Origin: an uncultured Desulfosarcina sp.
Lineage (GTDB): Bacteria > Desulfobacterota > Desulfobacteria > Desulfobacterales > Desulfosarcinaceae
NCBI GenBank assembly: GCA_963674945.2
Contig: CAXXWQ010000003.1
Span: 2,496,001 to 2,560,000 of the forward strand
DNA length: 64,000 nucleotides
Direction of reading: 5' to 3'
Numbering within the stretch: position 1 is the stretch's first letter; each line of letters opens with the position of its first letter. Below are positions 20,962 to 42,257 of this stretch, piece by piece. The notes under the pieces were generated by a model. It saw nothing but the letters and a program-made list of their open reading frames with translations, did not search any database and was not told the DNA's origin. The translations under genes were made by a program, and so were the position numbers.

Positions 20962-21420
20962 TCACGTTTCCGTTACAATGATTCGACTGGAAATCAGACC
21001 GTGAAAATAGCGGCCATCGGCGCTGGAAAAACGCCAGCCCATATGAACGTGGCAGTTGGCGCATACCGCGATTCGCCAGACATATCCCCTAAACCAGGTG
21101 AATTCGGGTGATGCCGGTCCGATGTAACCGCATCCCCATGCCTCCCGGTAGCAGACGATTTCGAAGACGATTCCATCCGGGTTGGCAAAGGTGTGTGCGT
21201 AGGAACCATCGATGAATTTTTGCTGCTCAGGAGAGGTAATCACATGGAGGCATTGGCGGCATAGTACGAGACCGTGATGCGCCGACGAAGTCTTTTCAGC
21301 GGGACCGGTTCGAGGCTTTCCCTGGTTCGATTTCGAATTGGGCCGAAAGAAAAACGTCGGTCCCTGTCGTGCTTGTAAGGGGGAACAAAAGGTCTTTGAC
21401 CCTATCAGGATAGCATCCAT
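20962..21420 (-). CDS. Cereblon-like (CULT/Yippee-fold) protein
   Basis: CRQC and CANC zinc pairs, FANPDG, FTWFRGYVW..HMGWRF aromatic cage. Confidence 0.88.
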   Translation of the reverse strand: MDAILIGSKTFCSPLQARQGPTFFFRPNSKSNQGKPRTGPAEKTSSAHHGLVLCRQCLHVITSPEQQKFIDGSYAHTFANPDGIVFEIVCYREAWGCGYIGPASPEFTWFRGYVWRIAVCANCHVHMGWRFSSADGRYFHGLISSRIIVTET

Positions 21421-23228: not shown

Positions 23229-23984
23229 CTATTTAATGCCTCGGGCGTTCTTGATCTGTTCCCACGCTTCCTGGATTTCTCGGAATTTATCCTGGGCGAA
23301 ACGGGTGAATTCATCGGGAAGTCCCTTTGCGGCAATTTTATCGGGATGATACTCCTGAACACGTTGCCGGTAGCAGCGCTTGACCTGTTCATCGGAATCT
23401 TCCGGCCGGCAACCCAAAACCGCATAGGCACTGTCCGCCGTTTGAATGTATTTTGATTTAAGCTGCTGATACCGGGAGGCGCTAAAATTGAACATTTTAA
23501 CTGCCGATAGGATCATCGACTCTTCCGCATCGGTCATTTTGCCGTCGGATACCGCCACCCGCAATAGAATGTCGACCATCAATTCGATCAATTGGGGCTG
23601 GCCGTGAAAATTACCGTAAAACTGACCGGCAAAATCGGCAAATGTCCCCGGCGCATTCAGGGCCGTCCGAAAAATGTTTTCGGCTGCATGCCGCCCCTGA
23701 GGATCCAACCGCAGATCCTTTTCCATGAACGATTCGATACTATCGATCTCCGCTTGGGTGACCCGGCCATCCGCCTGGGTGAGCTTTGCCAGCATGGAAA
23801 AGGCCGCGACGAAAAATGTCAATTGATGTTTTTCGACGGAGCTCAGTTGTGGGCGTCCACTGGCCGTGTCCAGTTCCACACCCGTATCGAAGGCATGTCC
23901 GAAAGTCGCCCCAAGTATGGCGCCAAGCGGCCCACCGAGTGCGAATCCGATGGTTCCGCCTACCAATTTCCCAGTCCACCCCAT
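23229..23984 (-). CDS. djlA: Co-chaperone DjlA (TM + TerB-like + J-domain)
   Basis: GGPLGAILG..GHAFD, ADGRV..EI, C-terminal J-domain with YHPD. Confidence 0.9.
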   Translation of the reverse strand: MGWTGKLVGGTIGFALGGPLGAILGATFGHAFDTGVELDTASGRPQLSSVEKHQLTFFVAAFSMLAKLTQADGRVTQAEIDSIESFMEKDLRLDPQGRHAAENIFRTALNAPGTFADFAGQFYGNFHGQPQLIELMVDILLRVAVSDGKMTDAEESMILSAVKMFNFSASRYQQLKSKYIQTADSAYAVLGCRPEDSDEQVKRCYRQRVQEYHPDKIAAKGLPDEFTRFAQDKFREIQEAWEQIKNARGIK

Positions 23985-25943: not shown

Positions 25944-27086
25944 ATGAAAGGTGACAATCTGGTATTTCTTGAAAATTTAGAGTGGTTCGACGAAAGCGGT
26001 CAGGAACTGGTACACCGTCTGCCGGAAAAAGGATCCGGTGAGATCAAATGGGGAGCCCAGCTGACACTACGGGAAAGCCAGGCAGGTGTATTCTACTATA
26101 AAGGTAAGGCAGTGGAGGCCTTCGGTCCCGGCCGTCATACGCTTACGACAGGTAACATCCCCTTACTGACAAAGATCGCCAGCCTGCCCTGGGGAATGAG
26201 CAGTCCACTAAGAGCGGAAGTCTATTTCGTCAACATGAAGGTCTTTACCAACCTTAAATGGGGAACAAGGGATCCGGTGGCCTTTAAGGATACGGAATTG
26301 GGACTGATCCGTCTGCGGGCATTCGGTGTATTCAATCTGCGGGTACTTCAACCGATACTGTTCATCAACACCATGGTGGGCACCCAGGGCATGTTTACCA
26401 CCGAAAGCATTGAAGAGTACTTGAATCGCGTCATCGTCTCCCGCTTTAACGATTATATGGGAGAAACCATCGACTCCATCCTTTCCCTGCCCGCCCAATA
26501 CGATGAACTGTCCCAAGGGCTTTCCAAGCGTCTGGAATCGGATTTTAAAAATTTCGGGTTGGGGCTCACCCACCTTTACATGAATGCCATCACACCTCCG
26601 CAGGAGGTTCAGAAGGCCATCGACGATCGAAGTCGAATGGGCGTCTTCGACGATATGAACAAGCTGATGCAGGTGAAGGCGGCCATGGCCATGGAGAAAG
26701 CCGCCGAGAAAGAGGGCGAAGGCGGCATGGGCATGGGAACGAGCCTGGGTTTGATGATGCCGGCCATGTTTGCCAACTATTTCAACGCTTCGAAACAAGG
26801 CAACGGCCATGGGGATTCGATGCCGGCATCTTACGAATCCACCACTTGCCAAGAGTGCCGATGCACCATTCCGGCCAATGCTAGATTTTGTCCCATGTGC
26901 GGTCATCAGCAGATCGTTTTTGACCAGTGCAGTCACTGCGGTAAAAATTTAGTTCCCAATGCACGATTCTGCTCCCGTTGCGGCCACCCGACCGAAGAAA
27001 AACCCGTTCCCATTTTTTGTGCATCCTGCGGGGCCGAAAATGTAGCCGGATCCAAATTTTGCACCAATTGCGGAGAAAAGCATTAA
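25944..27086 (+). CDS. SPFH (band-7-like, YdjI-type) protein with C-terminal zinc ribbons
   Basis: GAQLTLRESQ, FGPGRHTLTTGNIP, EVYFVN, KWGT, IRLRAFG, then six CxxC pairs. GGGAG SD. Confidence 0.9.
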   Translation: MKGDNLVFLENLEWFDESGQELVHRLPEKGSGEIKWGAQLTLRESQAGVFYYKGKAVEAFGPGRHTLTTGNIPLLTKIASLPWGMSSPLRAEVYFVNMKVFTNLKWGTRDPVAFKDTELGLIRLRAFGVFNLRVLQPILFINTMVGTQGMFTTESIEEYLNRVIVSRFNDYMGETIDSILSLPAQYDELSQGLSKRLESDFKNFGLGLTHLYMNAITPPQEVQKAIDDRSRMGVFDDMNKLMQVKAAMAMEKAAEKEGEGGMGMGTSLGLMMPAMFANYFNASKQGNGHGDSMPASYESTTCQECRCTIPANARFCPMCGHQQIVFDQCSHCGKNLVPNARFCSRCGHPTEEKPVPIFCASCGAENVAGSKFCTNCGEKH

Positions 27087-28314
27087 TTTTCTCATCGAAC
27101 ATCAATGCCCCCAATGCGGGGCACCGGCGACACTCGGCGAGACCGACCGATTGTTTCGCTGCGAATTTTGCAAGGTTACGTCATGCCTCGTGCCCCAAGG
27201 ATTCTTCCGGTATCTGCTACCTAACCGTGCACCCTACGATAAAGATCTGCTGTACGTTCCCTACTGGCGGTTCAAGGGCATGCTTTTTTCCTGTCTTTCC
27301 ACCGGGATCGAAAACCGATTCATGGATGTCAGCCATCTGGCGGTCCCGTCACCATTCTTTCCGGCCACCGTTGGACTTCGTAGTCAGGCCCTGAAATTGT
27401 CTTTTGTGGATCCAAAGGTGAAAGGTTGGTTTCTTCGCCCTACCCTTTTTTTTCATCAGGCAATGGAGATGTTCACACACCGTTTTAACCGTCATCATTC
27501 CGAAGATATTTTTCACCAGGCCCATATCGGTGAATCCGTAAGTATTTTGTATGCGCCATTTTATCTCGATGACGGTCTCGTCGATGGGGTGCTCAACCAG
27601 CCAATCCCGAAAGAGCCGGATACGATCTTCGATATCAACCAATTCACTGGGGGGCCGGCCGATTGGCGGGTCCGCTTCATTCCCACCTTATGTCCCGACT
27701 GCGGATGGGACATGAAGGGCGGTCACAAGGACGCCCTGGTCCTTTTTTGTAAAAACTGCGATACCCATTGGCAGGCGACCAAAAATGGCTTGGTCCGTGT
27801 CGAGGCAGCGCACATGCCGGGCAACGATGCCCAAGAGACCATCTACCTCCCCTTCTGGCGAGTCCGCGCAACCGTAACGGGGATTGATCTCTCCTCTTAT
27901 GCGGATCTCGTGAAAACCGCCAATCTGGCAAAAGCCGTCCAACCCGGTTGGGAAAAGCGACCCTTTTCCTTTTGGGGTCCTGCATTCAAAGTACGACCCA
28001 AAAGTTTTCTGCGTCTGACCCACCAGATCACCATGGTTCAACCGCGAGAAGAGTTGGTGGCCAGCGGCCCCAGAGGGAACGTCCACCCTGTAAATCTTCC
28101 CGTTTCCGAATCCATTGAGACCATGAAGGTGAACCTGGCCGGTATCATTCGGCAACAAAAGCACTTTGCAAAAATCATCGAAGCGATTCAGGTCACTCCG
28201 AAAAGCTACCTTCTGGTCTATTTCCCCTTTTCCGTACGTCACCACGATCTGGTTCAGCCGACCCTCAACATCGCCGTGAACCGTAATCAACTCGCCCTGG
28301 CCGGTAATCTATAG
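27082..28314 (+). CDS. Zinc-ribbon-containing hypothetical protein, probable ATT start
   Basis: The frame is open from 27046 and encodes CPQCG..CEFC upstream of the track's TTG (27151). It also has YVPYWR, CPDCG..CKNC and YLPFWR. Confidence 0.8.
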   Translation: MNFLIEHQCPQCGAPATLGETDRLFRCEFCKVTSCLVPQGFFRYLLPNRAPYDKDLLYVPYWRFKGMLFSCLSTGIENRFMDVSHLAVPSPFFPATVGLRSQALKLSFVDPKVKGWFLRPTLFFHQAMEMFTHRFNRHHSEDIFHQAHIGESVSILYAPFYLDDGLVDGVLNQPIPKEPDTIFDINQFTGGPADWRVRFIPTLCPDCGWDMKGGHKDALVLFCKNCDTHWQATKNGLVRVEAAHMPGNDAQETIYLPFWRVRATVTGIDLSSYADLVKTANLAKAVQPGWEKRPFSFWGPAFKVRPKSFLRLTHQITMVQPREELVASGPRGNVHPVNLPVSESIETMKVNLAGIIRQQKHFAKIIEAIQVTPKSYLLVYFPFSVRHHDLVQPTLNIAVNRNQLALAGNL

Positions 28315-28528: not shown

Positions 28529-29491
28529 ATGGCCCAACCCCTTTCCAGTCAACTGCTTCGACGGTCCTTCGTTAAGACCGTCCTTCGTCGTATCATTGCA
28601 TTCCTTACGTTGGTGGGGCTCGCATATGGTTTGATCGCCATCATCTACGCCACAAAAACCATCTTCAAGGTCAAAATGAATTACGCCGTGGTGCTGGAAG
28701 GGTTCGGCGGCGTCAGACAAGCGGTGACCGAAGTGGGCTGGCATGCCCGCCTTCCCTATTTCACACGGATCGAACAGGAAGTGCCGTTGATGAATCAGAC
28801 CATGCAACTGGGTGGCACACCTGCCCCCATGCGCATCATCTCAAGGGGAAACGTGGCACTGTGGACATCAGGAGTGCTGACATACCGAATCCGTGACCTT
28901 CACACCTGGGCCATCGAAAATCTGAACCCGCTGGATTTACTGCAAGGCGACTACGACGGAATCGTCAAGGACAACCTGCAGGCCCAGGAAGTAGACCGAT
29001 TGATCAGCGACCGGGAGACTATCAAGGAGGCGATCTTCACCGCCTTAAAGTCAAGACCCATCAACATCGGAGGTCCCACCATAGAAGAAAAATACGGAGT
29101 GGAAGTGGTCAGTTTCGTTCTCAAGGAGACTCGGTTCGGAGATAAACTCGTAGAGGCGTCGGAAGAGAAAAAGCGTCGGGAATTGATTGCCGAAGCCGAA
29201 AACTATGCCGCCGACCAGGAGGCAAGCCGGATACGAAAGCTCTATTCCGCCTATCTCGACGGCATTCAAAATCTGCAAGAGGCCTTGGGACGAAAGGATG
29301 CGAGCACCGATACCGCGCTTCTTCAATTTTTGACACAACAAAAATGGGCTACGGCCTACGAGAAGCAACAATTGGGGCAAAACACAGTGGTCATTCAAAA
29401 TACACAGGGCACCGCACCGCCGATCGTCCTTCCCGCTTTCAGTACCACCGAGAAATTGGAGGGAGAAAAAGATGGCCAGACGGCTGACTAA
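28529..29491 (+). CDS. Membrane-anchored SPFH/band-7 (HflK/HflC/prohibitin-like) protein
   Basis: ATG at 28529 after AAGGAG. One TM, then VVLEGFG..GWHARLPY, LTYRI, DRETI, YGVEVVSF and an E/A-rich coiled coil. Confidence 0.85.
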   Translation: MAQPLSSQLLRRSFVKTVLRRIIAFLTLVGLAYGLIAIIYATKTIFKVKMNYAVVLEGFGGVRQAVTEVGWHARLPYFTRIEQEVPLMNQTMQLGGTPAPMRIISRGNVALWTSGVLTYRIRDLHTWAIENLNPLDLLQGDYDGIVKDNLQAQEVDRLISDRETIKEAIFTALKSRPINIGGPTIEEKYGVEVVSFVLKETRFGDKLVEASEEKKRRELIAEAENYAADQEASRIRKLYSAYLDGIQNLQEALGRKDASTDTALLQFLTQQKWATAYEKQQLGQNTVVIQNTQGTAPPIVLPAFSTTEKLEGEKDGQTAD

Positions 29492-32400
29492 AGAGATCAC
29501 CTACGTCCAATTGCCGGAGGGCCGGATCCGGGAGATCAACGAATTGGTGTCCGCGTGGCCCCAGGAAACCAAAGCCTTCATGCGCGCCAGGCTCAATCAG
29601 TACCGTCCTCCAAGGGGTCTTTTCAACAGCGCTTTGGAAACGATCCTTTCTTTTTTCATGGATGCGCCGGAAAAACATTTCAACGTGTTAAAGGATCCCG
29701 ATATTCTGACGGACTGGCAAAAACGATTTGAAATTTCCGGACATACCAACCCGCAGGAGGCATGGAATAAAATCCTGGAGAAAGAGGTGTCTGCAAAAGA
29801 CTACCGCTATCTGCTCTACTTACTGGACAAGGAACTGCAGGACGTTCACGTTCCCGTCGAACTGAAAGATCTGTTCGAAAAAGTATATCGCGCCCACTTG
29901 CGAAAGGAGTACATCTCCGATTCGAATGTCCCCAAGTCTTCCCTTTTGCTTTTCATCGGACCGTCCGGCAGTGGAAAGACCTCCACCGTCACCCATGCCA
30001 TCGATCGTATCATTTTCGGAAACGAGGTGTTACCGGAAGTCGACCTGCACCAGAAGAAGGAAGCGGCGCTGGCCGGCGAGCATTTCTGGAAGACCATCGA
30101 AGAGATCGACCCGACACTGGCCGTGGAGATTTCCCAAAGAAAAAAACTGAATTTCTACAAGCGCATATCTACGATTCCCGTGCTACGCTTACTTCTGAAG
30201 AAGAGAATCGGAAAGAACCTGTCAAAACTCCAGGAACAGGGCGTCTGGGTGGATTATGCCATGGTCACCCCCAACGATTTTCAGACCGCGCTGGCGGGGG
30301 AACCCGGCAATTACTTCAAAAAGGCCCTGGGTGACCCCAGAAAGATGGCCATCCGGCATGTGGAAGAGGCCCACAGTGCCTTCGGAAGGGCCACAGGGCG
30401 TGATTCCGGGGTAGCACGACAACAAAGAACCCTGGTGGATACATCGAATATCGTCCTGGATGAGATCATCAACGGTAGTCGAGACTGCCTTCTCATCGCC
30501 ACAACGGATCAACCCGAGAGATTTGATTCCGCCATCTACCGCCGTTTCGTGGAAAAGGGACGTATCATCAATATTTCCGATTATTGGACGAATCCTGAGA
30601 ATCTACAGGAAGTGGTTCGACTGGAATTGATGCGAAACGATATTTCGGTCCTTTCCGAGGAAGACCATCCTTCTGCCGCCAGATCAAAATCAATCACGCG
30701 TCAGGACCTTTCCACGACGGTGGACAAGCTCTATTCCATTTTCAAGGAACGAACCTTGAAAGTGATCCCCTCTTATGTACGAAAACTGATCCACTCCATC
30801 ATTCAGATCAAAGGTGATTTTTCCGTCTCCTATCTCAACGATGCCATGCTGGTTCGCAAGGCCTTCGAGTTGGTGGCGCAAAACTCCTATGGCGATCTTT
30901 ATAAGAAGGTCGTCGGCCGCATGGACCGAGATGTCAAGTGGGAGGCCTATGTGGGAAGTATTAAGGATATCTTCTCGGAGATGACCAACAACTGTCTCTT
31001 TTACAATGTCAGCGAAGAAAAGGGCGTTGTGCTCAATGGACCACCGGGAAGCGGCAAGACGTTTTTGGCACGAACCTGGCTCAGTGAAAACACGGATGTC
31101 CACGATATCGCCACCAGTGCAAGCGCCCTGCAGGATCCGTCAAACCCCGTGGATGGTGCCGTGGACAACCTGGAAAAAATTTATGACATCGCCAAGATGA
31201 TTGCACCGACGGTGGTCTTTTTCGACGAGGGGGATGCCCTTGCCCCAAAACGAAGTGGCACCGGTGGAAATCCATCGGACAAACTGACCAACAAATTCTT
31301 AAACCTGATCGATGGCGAGACCCCCCTTCACAAGGTGTTTACCGTTCTCACCACCAATCGACTGGATATCCTCGACCCTGCCCTTATCCGCTCCAAGCGA
31401 CTTAAGGTTCTGGAGATCAAGGGGCTATTACAAAAAGACGACATCCTTCAGATTGTGGACAATGCACTGGAAGGTGTTCCCTTGTCGGCGGATCTTACTA
31501 CGGGTAAGATCGTCGATGCGGCAAAAGGCGTATGCAACACCCCTGCTGATTATGCCGCCTTCGTGGAAAAGGCACGGTCTTTGCGCAATACGGAGTACGA
31601 GGTGATCCTGCGCCTTCGGCAGATTCGCAATGACTCCGAAGAAAGTCGTAAGAATTTCATCAAGTTTAATTTCAAGACCCTGATCGGTATTTTGGATGCC
31701 TTTGATAAGGACAATCAGCTGAAGAAAACCGTCAAGGGGAATGCGGATCGTTTTTTGGAGCAGTACGAAGAGATCCTGAAATTGCTGGAACCGGTCCAAG
31801 ATCCAAATGACTATCCCATGGTATCCAGCCATCTCAAATCGGCCCGTCAGGAAATCTCGGAAAGTCCCACCAAGAAGGGAAAGGTGGTCCTGGACGAATT
31901 TTTAGAGGCGGAGTTGAGCCAGGAGCCCCAGGTTGGCTTTATCATCGGCGTGGGCGCGAACGAGGTAACCGGCGTTCTTTTGCCTATCGCCACGAGCCTT
32001 ACCTACCGCCTTTCTTCGGAAAAGGTTATGGTTACAGGTGCCGTCTCTTCCTCCTCGTCAGCCGGTGCGCAGATGGAAATGGCAGTGCAAATGACCCAGC
32101 AAAGCGCCCATGAAGCCCTTACCATGGTAAAAAATTACCTGCAGGAATTGAATCCCAAGGTAAATGCGGCGAGACTGCTTGGTGAATTTCTGGACAAGTA
32201 CACCATTCACCATCAACTTCTTAGTGCATCCTACAACGTGGGAGGCCCTTCGGCAGGATATGCGCTGGCCATCAACACGCTGTCCGCGCTGATGCACATT
32301 CCGGTCTATCATGACTTTGGCATCACCGGTGCTCCCTGGACCAAAGGGGTCAAACGGGGTGAGGTGGGCGGCTCCGTCATCATCGGCGGCCAGCGTAAGA

Positions 32401-32891
32401 AATCAGAAAAGGTTCTCATGTATCTTCGCCGAATGTATATGCCGCTAAAGAATTACATGGATTTGGAGAAGGAGTTTCTCGTTAACTACTGGCTCCAGGA
32501 CAAGGATATTTTAGGGGTAACCCATTTCGGCGACCTGGTTCCGGAAGTAATCTGTCTGGATCCGGAATATGAGCAGATTCTTCAGGATCTCATCGAAGCC
32601 CGCATCCGATACAAAGTAGATAAATACCAGGGGCAGGGATCCGATGAAATGGTGAAAGAGGAGATCCTCAGGAAAAAGGAAATTTTGAGAATTCGTGTTG
32701 AAAAAGAGATCAAGGGCCGGCTCAGCTCCCTGCGCCGTTATCTGAGGAGTCCGGCCAGAGATCCGCATCTCAGCATAGAAGAAATTTTTCGAAGACCGGA
32801 ATCTCCGATGATCCATTTGACCGATCCCTTCAAGCGTCTCATGCGAAAAGTACGTTCCCAGAACAAAATACGGATGAACACAAAACGATAA
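29472..32891 (+). CDS. Tandem AAA ATPase fused to a C-terminal Lon-type (S16) protease domain
   Basis: Walker A GPSGSGKT (aa 163) and GPPGSGKT (aa 523). Walker B HVEE and FFDE. SRH motifs TTDQPERFDSAIYRRF and TTNRLDILDPALIRSKRL. Lon motifs GGPSAG (S927) and IGGQRKK (K977). Confidence 0.88.
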   Translation: MARRLTKEITYVQLPEGRIREINELVSAWPQETKAFMRARLNQYRPPRGLFNSALETILSFFMDAPEKHFNVLKDPDILTDWQKRFEISGHTNPQEAWNKILEKEVSAKDYRYLLYLLDKELQDVHVPVELKDLFEKVYRAHLRKEYISDSNVPKSSLLLFIGPSGSGKTSTVTHAIDRIIFGNEVLPEVDLHQKKEAALAGEHFWKTIEEIDPTLAVEISQRKKLNFYKRISTIPVLRLLLKKRIGKNLSKLQEQGVWVDYAMVTPNDFQTALAGEPGNYFKKALGDPRKMAIRHVEEAHSAFGRATGRDSGVARQQRTLVDTSNIVLDEIINGSRDCLLIATTDQPERFDSAIYRRFVEKGRIINISDYWTNPENLQEVVRLELMRNDISVLSEEDHPSAARSKSITRQDLSTTVDKLYSIFKERTLKVIPSYVRKLIHSIIQIKGDFSVSYLNDAMLVRKAFELVAQNSYGDLYKKVVGRMDRDVKWEAYVGSIKDIFSEMTNNCLFYNVSEEKGVVLNGPPGSGKTFLARTWLSENTDVHDIATSASALQDPSNPVDGAVDNLEKIYDIAKMIAPTVVFFDEGDALAPKRSGTGGNPSDKLTNKFLNLIDGETPLHKVFTVLTTNRLDILDPALIRSKRLKVLEIKGLLQKDDILQIVDNALEGVPLSADLTTGKIVDAAKGVCNTPADYAAFVEKARSLRNTEYEVILRLRQIRNDSEESRKNFIKFNFKTLIGILDAFDKDNQLKKTVKGNADRFLEQYEEILKLLEPVQDPNDYPMVSSHLKSARQEISESPTKKGKVVLDEFLEAELSQEPQVGFIIGVGANEVTGVLLPIATSLTYRLSSEKVMVTGAVSSSSSAGAQMEMAVQMTQQSAHEALTMVKNYLQELNPKVNAARLLGEFLDKYTIHHQLLSASYNVGGPSAGYALAINTLSALMHIPVYHDFGITGAPWTKGVKRGEVGGSVIIGGQRKKSEKVLMYLRRMYMPLKNYMDLEKEFLVNYWLQDKDILGVTHFGDLVPEVICLDPEYEQILQDLIEARIRYKVDKYQGQGSDEMVKEEILRKKEILRIRVEKEIKGRLSSLRRYLRSPARDPHLSIEEIFRRPESPMIHLTDPFKRLMRKVRSQNKIRMNTKR

Positions 32892-39707: not shown

Positions 39708-41945
39708 TTACTCGTATTGGAATGTAACCGCGTCTTGTTCCATCTCCAATTTCACCATGCCACCTTTTTGCAGACGTCCAAAGAGAATTTCATGGGCCAG
39801 CATGTCCTTGATTTCGGATTGGATGACTCTCGCCAGAGGCCTCGCACCGTTTTGGGGATCGTACCCTTTTTTTGCCAGATAATTCCTTACGGCATCCGAA
39901 TATGCCAGGGACACTCTCTTTCCGGCCAATTGGTCGGAAAATTCCTTCATGAACTTGTCGACAATCTTTCCCATGATAGTGGAATCAAGAGAGTTAAAGG
40001 TGATGATGCCATCGAGGCGGTTTCGAAATTCCGGGCTGAACAGCTTTTCAATGGCTTTTTTCCCCTTACCGGTACTATCGCTTTTTGGGTCTCCGAATCC
40101 GATGGTGGCGCTGCTCATCTCGCGGGAACCGGCATTGGAGGTCATCATGACGATGACATTGCGAAAATCAGCCTTCTTTCCGTTGTTGTCCGTCAAGGTG
40201 GCATGATCGAGCACCTGGAGCAGGATGTTGAAAAGGTCTTCGTGCGCCTTTTCAATCTCATCCAACAGAAGGACACTGTAGGGGTGCTTTCGGATGCCAT
40301 CGGTGAGCAATCCGCCCTGATCGAAACCAATGTAACCGGGGGGGGCACCGATAAGCCTTGCAACGGCATGCTTTTCCATATATTCGCTCATGTCGTACCG
40401 CATGAACTCGACATCCAATTGTTGGGCCACTTGACGCGCTACCTCAGTCTTTCCAACACCCGTGGGACCGGTAAAAAGGAATGATCCGACAGGTTTTTCC
40501 GGTTGCCCGAGTCCTGCCCGGGATCGTTTGATGGCGGTTACAAGTGCGTCGATGGCATCGTCCTGGCCAAAGACCACCTGGCGCAGCTGATCGCCGAGAT
40601 TCTCCAGCTTGGTCTTGTCCGGTGTGGAAACATTGACGGCGGGAATCCGTGCAATTTTGGCGACGATCTTTTCGATATCCGACGGATGGATCTTTTTCCG
40701 GTTGGCGGGACCGGAGAGGCGAATGGCCGCACCGGCTTCATCGATGACGTCGATGGCTTTGTCCGGAAGGTACCGGTCGTTTATGTATTTTGCCGACAAC
40801 TCGCATGCCGCCTTGAGCGCGCCTTCGGTGTATTCGATCTCATGATGTTCCTCGTATCTGGATCGAAGCCCCTTCAGGATTTTGACGGATTCTTTGATGG
40901 GAGGTTCGAGGATATCGATCTTTTCGAACCTTCTGGACAGAGCACGATCCTTTTCGAAATGATTTTTGTACTCCTCGTAGGTGGTGGAGCCGATGCAACG
41001 AAGCTCACCGGTGGAGAGAAACGGTTTGAGGATATTGCTGGCATCCATGGATCCGCTGCTGGTGGCACCCGCACCGACGATGGTGTGAATCTCGTCGATG
41101 AACAAGATGGCATTTTTCCGCTTCTTCAACTCTTCCACGACCCCTTTGAGGCGCTGTTCGAAATCCCCCCTGAACTTTGAACCGGCCAACATGCCACCTA
41201 AATCCAGGGAAAAGATCCGGACCTCCTTCAACAGTTCGGGGACCTCACCATCCCATATCTTTTGTGCCAGTCCCTCGGCCATGGCGGTCTTGCCAACTCC
41301 TGGATCGCCGACAAAAATCGGGTTGTTCTTCCGGCGACGACAAAGCACCTGCATCGTTCTCGTCATCTCCAATTCGCGACCGATCAACGGGTCCAACTTC
41401 CCCTTTGCGGCCCTATCGATGAGATTGATGGTGTATGCCTCGAGTGGATTCGCCTTTTTCTTGTCGCTCTTTTTTTCGGTACCTTTTTCGGTCTCCGGCA
41501 TCTCTTCAGGCGGATTCCCATGTACTTCATGGGAAATGACCCGCAACACGTCGAATCGGGTTATTCCCTCCTCATTCAGAAAGTATACGGCATGGCTGTC
41601 CTTCTCCATGAAGAGGGAGGCCAGAATATCGCTTACCGCCACTTCCTTCTTTTCCGCGGAACGGACATGATTCACGGCGCGCTGGATGACCCGTTGGAAC
41701 CCGATGGTCTGCTGAAGGACATACTCGCTCTCTTCGGGGATCATCTCCATGTCGTTTTCGAAAAAGGTCTCCAGGCTGGCCTTGATCTTTTCCACGTCGC
41801 CACCGCATTTTTCCAAGATCTCCAGCCCCGTGCTATCATGCAGGATGGCGAACAATACATGTTCTACGCTGACATATTCGTGTCGTCGTTTCTTGGCTTC
41901 TCGAACGGCAAAGCCCAAAGTGGCACTGAGTTCCTTACTGATCAT
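39708..41945 (-). CDS. clpA: ATP-dependent Clp protease ATP-binding subunit ClpA
   Basis: Two AAA modules (GDPGVGKT, GPTGVGKT), GAPPGYIG pore loop, IGF loop. Adjacent to clpS. Confidence 0.96.
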   Translation of the reverse strand: MISKELSATLGFAVREAKKRRHEYVSVEHVLFAILHDSTGLEILEKCGGDVEKIKASLETFFENDMEMIPEESEYVLQQTIGFQRVIQRAVNHVRSAEKKEVAVSDILASLFMEKDSHAVYFLNEEGITRFDVLRVISHEVHGNPPEEMPETEKGTEKKSDKKKANPLEAYTINLIDRAAKGKLDPLIGRELEMTRTMQVLCRRRKNNPIFVGDPGVGKTAMAEGLAQKIWDGEVPELLKEVRIFSLDLGGMLAGSKFRGDFEQRLKGVVEELKKRKNAILFIDEIHTIVGAGATSSGSMDASNILKPFLSTGELRCIGSTTYEEYKNHFEKDRALSRRFEKIDILEPPIKESVKILKGLRSRYEEHHEIEYTEGALKAACELSAKYINDRYLPDKAIDVIDEAGAAIRLSGPANRKKIHPSDIEKIVAKIARIPAVNVSTPDKTKLENLGDQLRQVVFGQDDAIDALVTAIKRSRAGLGQPEKPVGSFLFTGPTGVGKTEVARQVAQQLDVEFMRYDMSEYMEKHAVARLIGAPPGYIGFDQGGLLTDGIRKHPYSVLLLDEIEKAHEDLFNILLQVLDHATLTDNNGKKADFRNVIVMMTSNAGSREMSSATIGFGDPKSDSTGKGKKAIEKLFSPEFRNRLDGIITFNSLDSTIMGKIVDKFMKEFSDQLAGKRVSLAYSDAVRNYLAKKGYDPQNGARPLARVIQSEIKDMLAHEILFGRLQKGGMVKLEMEQDAVTFQYE

Positions 41946-41948
41946 TTT

Positions 41949-42257
41949 CTATTCCTGTTCCATACTGCAACGTAGCGGAAAGCCGCTTTCACGTGCAAGA
42001 TTGTGGACCGTATCGACCTTGGTCTCGGCAACTTCGTGGGTATACACCCCACAAACACCGATCCCTTTCCTGTGAACGTTCATCATGATCTTCACCGCCG
42101 CCTCCGGAGATTTGTTGAACACATACATCAGCACCTCAACGACGAATTCCATGGTGGTATAATCGTCATTGTGCAAAAGCACCCGGTACATGGGCGGTTT
42201 ATCGGTTATTTCCCTGGTCTGGGAATCCGATTGTGATTCTGTCTGATATCGAGACAT
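41949..42257 (-). CDS. clpS: Clp protease adaptor ClpS
   Basis: YRVLLHNDDYTTMEFVV, AETKV, FPL. Confidence 0.96.
   Translation of the reverse strand: MSRYQTESQSDSQTREITDKPPMYRVLLHNDDYTTMEFVVEVLMYVFNKSPEAAVKIMMNVHRKGIGVCGVYTHEVAETKVDTVHNLARESGFPLRCSMEQE

Follow-up and report, generated by a model that had tools for sequence, protein, structure and literature searches.

Two AAA modules and a Lon protease domain in a single protein, encoded beside an SPFH gene in an uncultured Desulfosarcina

Introduction

The ATP-dependent proteases known to date combine certain motors with certain peptidases; for Lon peptidases, the motor described is a single one, of the HCLR clade. Whether a Lon peptidase can also stand behind a different, double-ring motor is the question raised by a gene of an uncultured Desulfosarcina sp. 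(assembly GCA_963674945.2, contig CAXXWQ010000003.1). The gene lies in a stretch of 64,000 nucleotides (positions 2,496,001 to 2,560,000 of the forward strand), here called the window, where it occupies positions 29472..32891 (+). Its product of 1139 amino acids (aa) had been predicted from the sequence alone to be a self-contained protease with two CDC48/p97-like AAA modules and a fused Lon (S16) domain. We confirm the pair of AAA modules, both of the classical clade, and the Lon (S16) protease domain; the presence of a tandem classical AAA motor and a Lon peptidase in one open reading frame (ORF) is borne out by Pfam, by conservation among homologues and by fold comparison. Sequence comparisons and structure models establish the architecture, the conservation of the catalytic residues and the co-inheritance of the gene with one for an SPFH membrane protein. 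Our preferred reading, held with moderate confidence as a whole, is that the two genes form an operon for a membrane-associated ATP-dependent protease with an SPFH-linked membrane role.

Results

Domain architecture

The gene and its parts were delineated from the ORF call, Pfam and a structure model. The first 120 residues (29472..29831, +) are mostly helical in the model, conserved and family-specific, with T6, L25, W29, L41 and R85 near-invariant. This region is not a CDC48 N-domain, and no fold match specific to it was found, the region having been folded only jointly with D1. D1, the first AAA module (29832..30926, +), contains Walker A at aa 163-170, Walker B at E298-E299, D346 at the sensor-1 position, and R357/R358. 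It carries a helical insertion at aa ~183-258 (30018..30245, +; model helices H192-253), in which the charge profile reveals a polybasic stretch at aa ~223-245. D2, the second and CDC48-D2-like module (30927..31871, +; Walker A 523-530, D585/E586, N629, R640/R643), has an extra helical segment in its lid. The Lon S16 protease domain, or P domain, follows at aa ~810-1030 (31899..32561, +), as defined by Pfam Lon_C, its fold, Ser927 and Lys977. The chain ends in a helical hairpin (H1031-1052 and H1059-1092 of the model) and a basic tail (32562..32891, +), both weakly conserved (mean identity 0.21-0.59 by homologue group). The P-loops start at aa 163 and 523, and the motifs RHVEEA, VFFDEGD, GGPSAG and IGGQRKK at aa 295, 582, 924 and 971; these motifs, and the codons of Ser927 (nt 32250) and Lys977 (nt 32400), are all where the original prediction had placed them.

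Pfam finds AAA at aa 519-646 (E 7.9e-30) and Lon_C at aa 809-998 (E 6.5e-7, 29.6 bits, cut-off 21.1). Two PF00004 matches had been expected in addition to Lon_C; Lon_C indeed scores above its cut-off, but PF00004 matches D2 only and misses D1 of the window protein. In a Woesearchaeota homologue (P0125), Pfam does find two AAA stretches. The CDC48_N and LON N-domain families do not occur among the 25 Pfam rows listed, Pfam gives no M41 match in the protease, and hydropathy analysis found no transmembrane helix in it, the sole peak (1.66) being a P-domain strand at aa 821. In NCBIfam, D2 matches CDC48, PAN and FtsH best and the C-terminal part matches LonB/lon best, but every score is far under the cut-off of the family concerned.

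The AlphaFold2 model of the whole protein, built from 100 sequences, has a predicted local distance difference test score (pLDDT) of 87.6 and a predicted template modelling score of 0.78. In this model, D2 and the P domain superimpose as one unit on the AAA-P part of Lon (6on2: 410 residues, root-mean-square deviation (rmsd) 4.0), and D1 and D2 together superimpose on double-AAA chains (NVL 9bji: 483-490 residues, rmsd ~8.7) and on Rix7. No PDB chain among the fold matches listed covers D1, D2 and the P domain together, and the suspicion that no characterised family or PDB chain has the complete architecture held up in the NCBIfam and fold searches.

A homologue search with a word index and HMMER returned 376 proteins, 225 of them full-length (at least 1000 aa, with at least 900 aa covered). 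This set takes in the query and near-duplicates, and contains 170 distinct proteins at 90% identity. An assembly chimera can be ruled out, because the 225 full-length homologues have the same architecture.

The Lon domain and its catalytic dyad

Ser927 is present in 224 of the 225 full-length homologues, the exception (P0031) having an out-of-frame stretch, and Lys977 is present in all of them, down to 33% identity. The neighbouring K976 (193/225) and K980 (198/225) vary, which singles out the invariant K977 as the base. This residue sits four positions past the second Gly of I-G-G, which we take to be the same register as in E. coli Lon. P926 is likewise invariant (225/225) and puts Ser927 into a G-P-S-A-G context of the A-type, with Pro before Ser; the G-P-S-A-G, T-G and I-G-G motifs are near-invariant. 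Among homologues below 45% identity, the P domain is 48% conserved, compared with 43% for D2.

The modelled P domain matches those of Lon proteases with Z 18.4-19.4 and rmsd 2.5-3.1 over 178-192 residues, at 23-28% identity (8dvh: Z 19.4, rmsd 2.9, 181 aligned; 1rr9: Z 18.9, rmsd 2.5, 178 aligned). The best PDB match by sequence is B. subtilis LonBA (8dvh, E 2.3e-5). For RadA, BrxL and ComM, Z is 15-16 and identity 10-14%. The Lon-like domains of these proteins suggest an alternative, namely that the domain in the window protein is an inactive oligomerisation fold and the whole protein an unfoldase only. The modest Lon_C score (29.6 bits) and the unusual spacing of Ser and Lys (49 residues) would fit this idea. 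We nevertheless consider it highly improbable and reject an inactive RadA/ComM-like fold, since the dyad is kept down to 33% identity (224/225 and 225/225), together with the near-invariant motifs around it, and since the fold scores are nearer to active Lons (Z 18.4-19.4) than to RadA, BrxL and ComM (Z 15-16). The C-terminal region had been read as a Lon P-domain with a candidate Ser927/Lys977 dyad, and both parts of this assignment stand, with Lon_C above the Pfam cut-off, Z ~19 to Lon P domains, and Ser927 and Lys977 conserved in homologues. Judged by sequence conservation and the model, the window protein is very probably an active peptidase.

The D2 module

In D2, the full canonical K/T/D/E/N/R set is found in all 196 homologues at 45% identity or above, and in 14 of the 29 more distant ones. 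The catalytic Glu (E586) is present in 225/225 homologues, N629, R640 and R643 are conserved, and the Walker A Lys is invariant in both rings (225/225). The D2 profile scores 108.7 bits against Cdc48 D2 and 81.2 bits against Cdc48 D1. Each of the three trees with D2 also puts it on the side of CDC48 D2; in the tree without D1, the support is 91/93, below the starred level. The reference CDC48 proteins for the trees were taken from the window protein's own matches and labelled by NCBIfam, with 2 of 16 omitted; the smaller trees contain 8 of 17 family members, and PAN, NVL, NSF and Lon are absent from the trees. When a profile of the family alignment was searched against the PDB, only D2 was detected in the alignments listed. 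Profile scores and tree placement agree with the original view that D2 resembles p97 D2, and by sequence D2 appears to group with CDC48 D2. Its pore loop 1, at V560 in the window protein, is usually non-aromatic (P-I/V-D/E-G), an aromatic residue being present in 6/134 close homologues, 10/62 at 45-60% identity and 8/29 below 45%.

The D1 module and its basic insertion

D1 is a very divergent classical-clade AAA module, as judged from sequence and model. The evidence for this assignment consists of structure comparison and weak profile matches. Folded alone (pLDDT 85), D1 matches FtsHi (Z 17.1), Trip13 (16.9), Rix7 (16.3), NVL (16.0), p97 (15.9) and Vps4 (14.9), with lower values (Z ~12) for ClpA/C, DnaA and clamp loaders; Foldseek ranked p97 N-D1 first, in near ties. 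K169 is conserved in 225/225 and E299 in 224/225 full-length homologues, R358 is mostly kept, and sensor 1 is occupied by D, H, R or N.

The original prediction of two P-loop AAA modules, each with a Walker B motif and Arg fingers, is correct as far as both modules belong to the classical clade, but the finger of D1 is not of the CDC48/FtsH type: it reads Y-R-R-F and lacks the two extra residues of the R-x-x-R finger. A specific likeness of D1 to p97 D1 is not established. The L-A-G loop, with L274 in the window protein, is a feature of the close clade, the distant members having W-Y-G in its place (aromatic in 2/134 close homologues, 59/62 at 45-60% identity and 25/29 below 45%), and the position of D1 in trees shifts with the taxon set. 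It falls among CDC48 D1 in the quick tree and beside D2 in the second, and in the third it is unresolved, outside the 99/99 CDC48-D1 clade; its branch is very long.

The distance from the Walker A Lys to the Walker B Glu is larger in D1, with 129 residues between them in 196/225 homologues versus 56-58 in D2, or ~73 more. Across 100 aligned homologues, the best 18-aa segment of this insertion has a median net charge of +8. The position-wise charge profile peaks here as well, and no other conserved stretch of the protein is as basic. The sequence thus makes the insertion a candidate membrane or partner contact, although basic charge alone could also mean nucleic-acid or partner binding.

The SPFH partner gene

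Directly upstream of the protease gene lies a gene for an SPFH/band-7 protein of 320 aa (28529..29491, +; Pfam Band_7, E 3e-15), whose start is fixed by homologues and whose 3' end overlaps the protease start by 20 nt. The product has a basic N-terminus, a single transmembrane helix (aa ~22-40, hydropathy peak 2.4 at aa 22), the SPFH domain and a probable coiled-coil tail. We regarded a locus as testable if it contained the start of the protease gene plus 1 kb or more in front of it, as 57 of 74 loci do. The SPFH gene is directly upstream in all 57, and in 9/9 more distant loci as well. The other 17 of the 74 are contig ends or broken copies, three of which show the 3' part of the SPFH gene; the decayed copies L009 and L039, described below, are also among the 17. 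The gap between the two genes is -20 to +40 nt in 59/63 loci. When 401 genomes of the phylum were searched with the SPFH protein, the matches fell in the 10 genomes that carry the protease and in no others, at adjacent positions; the relatives among these genomes are not independent. The notion of a "self-contained" protease is therefore doubtful, as the gene is tightly coupled to that of an SPFH membrane protein in all testable loci.

This strict one-to-one co-inheritance and the translational coupling would also suit a dedicated processing pair, in which the main substrate is the SPFH partner itself, or a small complex held by it, that is remodelled or cleaved as a signal. Stomatin-NfeD/STOPP operons presumably offer a parallel. 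A double AAA motor with a chambered Lon peptidase would fit processive degradation better than a single cut, and we regard the processing pair as improbable.

In the window, the pair is preceded by a second SPFH gene (Band_7_1, with zinc ribbons; 25944-27086, +) and a gene for a Cys-rich protein without a Pfam family (27151-28314, +), so that there are two SPFH genes inside 3.5 kb. The former accompanies the pair in 22 and the latter in 24 of the 57 testable loci, some of which have short flanks. In one genome (G226, L126:8324-10278), an hflK-hflC-like gene pair lies divergently beside the SPFH-protease pair. A promoter and terminator scan gave results at chance level.

Distribution of the family

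The close group of homologues (60-86% identity) belongs to Desulfosarcina, Desulfatitalea, Desulfofustis, Desulfopila and related genomes, as would suit a Desulfosarcina-like host. The group at 45-60% includes Desulfuromonas and Malonomonas. Proteins at 33-40% identity are labelled Woesearchaeota and Nanoarchaeota (DPANN), Falkowbacteria and Parcubacteria (candidate phyla radiation, CPR) and Marinimicrobia, labels that are those of metagenome bins. Counting the host, the gene is present in 48/65 genomes of the host family and in 10/401 genomes sampled across the phylum. A metagenome scan with an archaeal query found three family loci only, all nearer to the window protein (52-66%) than to the query.

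Such a patchy, cross-domain spread (10/401 phylum genomes; DPANN and CPR members) is reminiscent of conflict systems, and one may imagine an anti-phage or other conflict module with the SPFH protein as the sensor of membrane damage and the protease as effector. The decayed copies L009 and L039, described below, and the Lon-like fold carried by BrxL would be compatible with this scenario. PADLOC, however, gives partial AAA matches only (IetA, TRIP13, mad8) and none for the SPFH partner, the gene is present in most family genomes (48/65), with neighbours shared within subgroups, and neither the 72,556 plasmid records nor the 50,697 phage records searched contain a match that covers 80% of the protein. 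We judge a defence role to be even less probable than a processing pair. A mobile-element origin was rejected on the same plasmid and phage records; five viral-contig matches are short AAA matches only.

Other observations

The ESM Atlas has two clusters of archaeal proteins, from Bathyarchaeota and Thermoproteota, that combine AAA with Lon_C in 909-919 aa (feature score 0.97) and are possibly a sister family of the window protease family. In P0149 (595 aa), a caspase-like Peptidase_C14 domain (E 5.5e-18) is fused to a degenerate Lon domain and tail of the family; its catalytic Lys is substituted in the alignment, and the protein, from a single short contig, may be a chimera. At L051:9-1934, ~320 unrelated residues are joined in frame to the Lon domain and tail of the family, which show 79% identity and an intact dyad; this is a rearrangement or misassembly. 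Among decayed copies, that at L009:3490-6087 has undergone a deletion by which the SPFH gene runs in frame into D2, with a stop after it, that at L039:2973-4280 has lost both the SPFH gene and D1, and the copies at L005 and L027 have frameshifts in D2.

The neighbourhood of the protease gene is rich in protein quality-control genes. A DjlA-like TerB-DnaJ gene (23229-23984, -) and, by translation, an apparent clpS-clpA pair (39708-42257, -) are each ~7 kb or less from it. An ORF of 152 aa with C-x-x-C pairs (20962-21420, -) has no Pfam match at E 1e-4; we take it to resemble a zinc domain of the cereblon/thalidomide-binding type.

Discussion

Relation to known proteases and unfoldases

With the Lon proteases (MEROPS S16: LonA, LonB, LonC and LonBA), the window protein shares the C-terminal P domain, the Ser-Lys dyad, the Pro before Ser of the A-type and the fusion to an AAA module. 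Lon motors belong to the HCLR clade (PMC7973254), and the A, B, C and BA subfamilies are described with one AAA module each (PMC9569914, PMC3391209), whereas the window protein has two of the classical clade. It lacks the LON N-domain of LonA, and the NCBIfam lon model covers only aa 613-955, with 39.7 bits (cut-off 608). Unlike LonB, it has no transmembrane anchor in the AAA module, the insertion between Walker A and B of D1 is polybasic and not hydrophobic, and P926 stands before the Ser, where LonB has Asp. LonC has degenerate Walker motifs and no ATPase activity, while D2 of the window family has the full canonical set in 196/196 members at 45% identity or above.

Tandem classical AAA modules, which contain the second region of homology, are the feature shared with CDC48, p97 and VAT. 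By profile and tree, the D2 of the window protein is closest to that of CDC48, and these proteins are the top Foldseek matches. The window protein differs from them in having no CDC48 N-domain that could be seen, a ~73-aa insertion in D1 and a fused peptidase, and most members of its family lack an aromatic pore loop in D2. TIGR01243 matches aa 513-708 only, with 85.6 bits (cut-off 802.65).

FtsH combines a classical AAA module with a peptidase and is paired with the SPFH proteins HflK and HflC (PMC12048511; see also PMC13376388), as the m-AAA protease is with prohibitins. In contrast to FtsH, the window protein is a Ser-Lys and not a zinc (M41) peptidase, has two rings, and lacks a transmembrane or periplasmic domain. 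It is paired with a single SPFH gene, and a profile comparison of this SPFH protein with one HflK-like protein gave no significant match. RadA/Sms, ComM and BrxL also have a Lon-like fold on an ATPase (Z 15-16), but their ATPases are of other clades, identity is 10-14%, and the catalytic pair is kept in the window family.

By its sequence features, the window protein falls outside LonA, LonB, LonC, CDC48 and FtsH. Among the S16 architectures that a survey of 2008 lists for 91 genomes, there is no AAA-AAA-Lon_C combination (PMC2605481). A description of this architecture was not found in the literature searched either, a search in which few subscription papers were included, so that a mention in a table or in MEROPS may exist. 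By analogy, the system would follow FtsH-HflKC-like logic, built of CDC48-like and Lon parts.

Proposed mechanism

Going by Lon and CDC48, six subunits would assemble into a three-tier barrel. ATP hydrolysis, mainly in D2 and probably also in D1, would thread substrates through both pores, that of D1 and that of D2, into the chamber of the Lon peptidase, to be cut there by the Ser927-Lys977 dyad. ATP-driven threading by the window protein appears likely by this analogy. Since the protease has no transmembrane helix, we propose that the basic D1 insertion and the N-terminal region attach it to the cytoplasmic side of the membrane. By analogy with FtsH-HflKC, the SPFH oligomer may organise a membrane patch and gather or gate membrane or membrane-proximal substrates, and the role of the pair may be quality control of membrane proteins. 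Docking at an SPFH-organised patch is the least certain part of this proposal.

Several findings weigh against a membrane-associated, threading protease. The distance between Ser and Lys is 49 residues in 224/225 homologues, whereas it is given as exactly 42 in the LonA and LonB subfamilies (PMC9569914). The canonical set of D2 is incomplete in 15 of the 29 distant (<45%) homologues. Walker B of D1 reads E-E instead of D-E, with Asp as the first acid in only 5/225 homologues (absent in 220/225). As for the membrane role, the SPFH partner has more K/R before than after its helix in 119/120 close, non-independent homologues, and the positive-inside rule suggests that its SPFH domain faces outward, on the opposite side from the protease. 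An outward-facing SPFH domain is described for HflK/C too, but there the contact with FtsH is made by the FtsH periplasmic domain (PMC12048511), which the window protease lacks.

The main evidence against strong threading, at the sequence level, comes from the pore loops. Aromatic pore-loop residues normally grip the substrate (PMC7973254), and in the clade of the window protein 126/134 homologues lack an aromatic pore loop 1 in both rings. In yeast Cdc48, the aromatic residue is lost from the D1 loop (PMC5511170); most of the window family shows the reverse, with an aromatic residue in the D1 loop and not in the D2 loop, while the window clade is without both. The Lon peptidase could thus be active behind AAA rings that serve as scaffold or gate with little threading, D1 being regulatory or catalytically dead, and could cut unfolded or presented substrates. 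With LonC, an ATP-independent Lon hexamer is already known (PMC3391209), and the E-E Walker B and the D, H or R at the sensor-1 position of D1 point in the same direction as the pore loops. Yet, unlike in LonC, the Walker A Lys is invariant in both rings (225/225), the catalytic Glu is kept in D2 (225/225) and D1 (224/225), and D2 has retained N629, R640 and R643; the D1 loop is aromatic in 84/91 homologues below 60% identity. A scaffold role of the rings seems unlikely to us, and we continue to prefer an ATP-dependent, membrane-associated protease.

Biological significance

The host genome has 4 FtsH and 4 Lon-family genes above the NCBIfam cut-offs, and their retention makes the SPFH-protease pair an accessory system. 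It is conceivable, though we advance the idea only tentatively, that the family represents a separate class of self-compartmentalising ATP-dependent proteases, present in both bacteria and archaea. On this view, a double-ring unfoldase of CDC48 descent has captured a Lon peptidase by covalent fusion, which would stand in for a separate proteasome, and the resulting machine, with no membrane anchor itself, would extract membrane proteins at an SPFH cage and destroy them. The family would then combine, in one prokaryotic chain, the equivalents of Cdc48-driven extraction and of degradation.

The family indicates that a Lon chamber can stay under selection behind a classical double-ring motor, in a machine that is coupled with SPFH scaffolding. 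As a one-chain system, it can be used to ask how D1 and D2 rings share work, and bears on whether non-aromatic pore loops thread substrates. Homologues are present in culturable Desulfosarcina, Desulfofustis and Desulfopila strains, so that direct testing is feasible. Finally, the system bears on the roles that bacterial and archaeal SPFH proteins may have besides that of HflKC.

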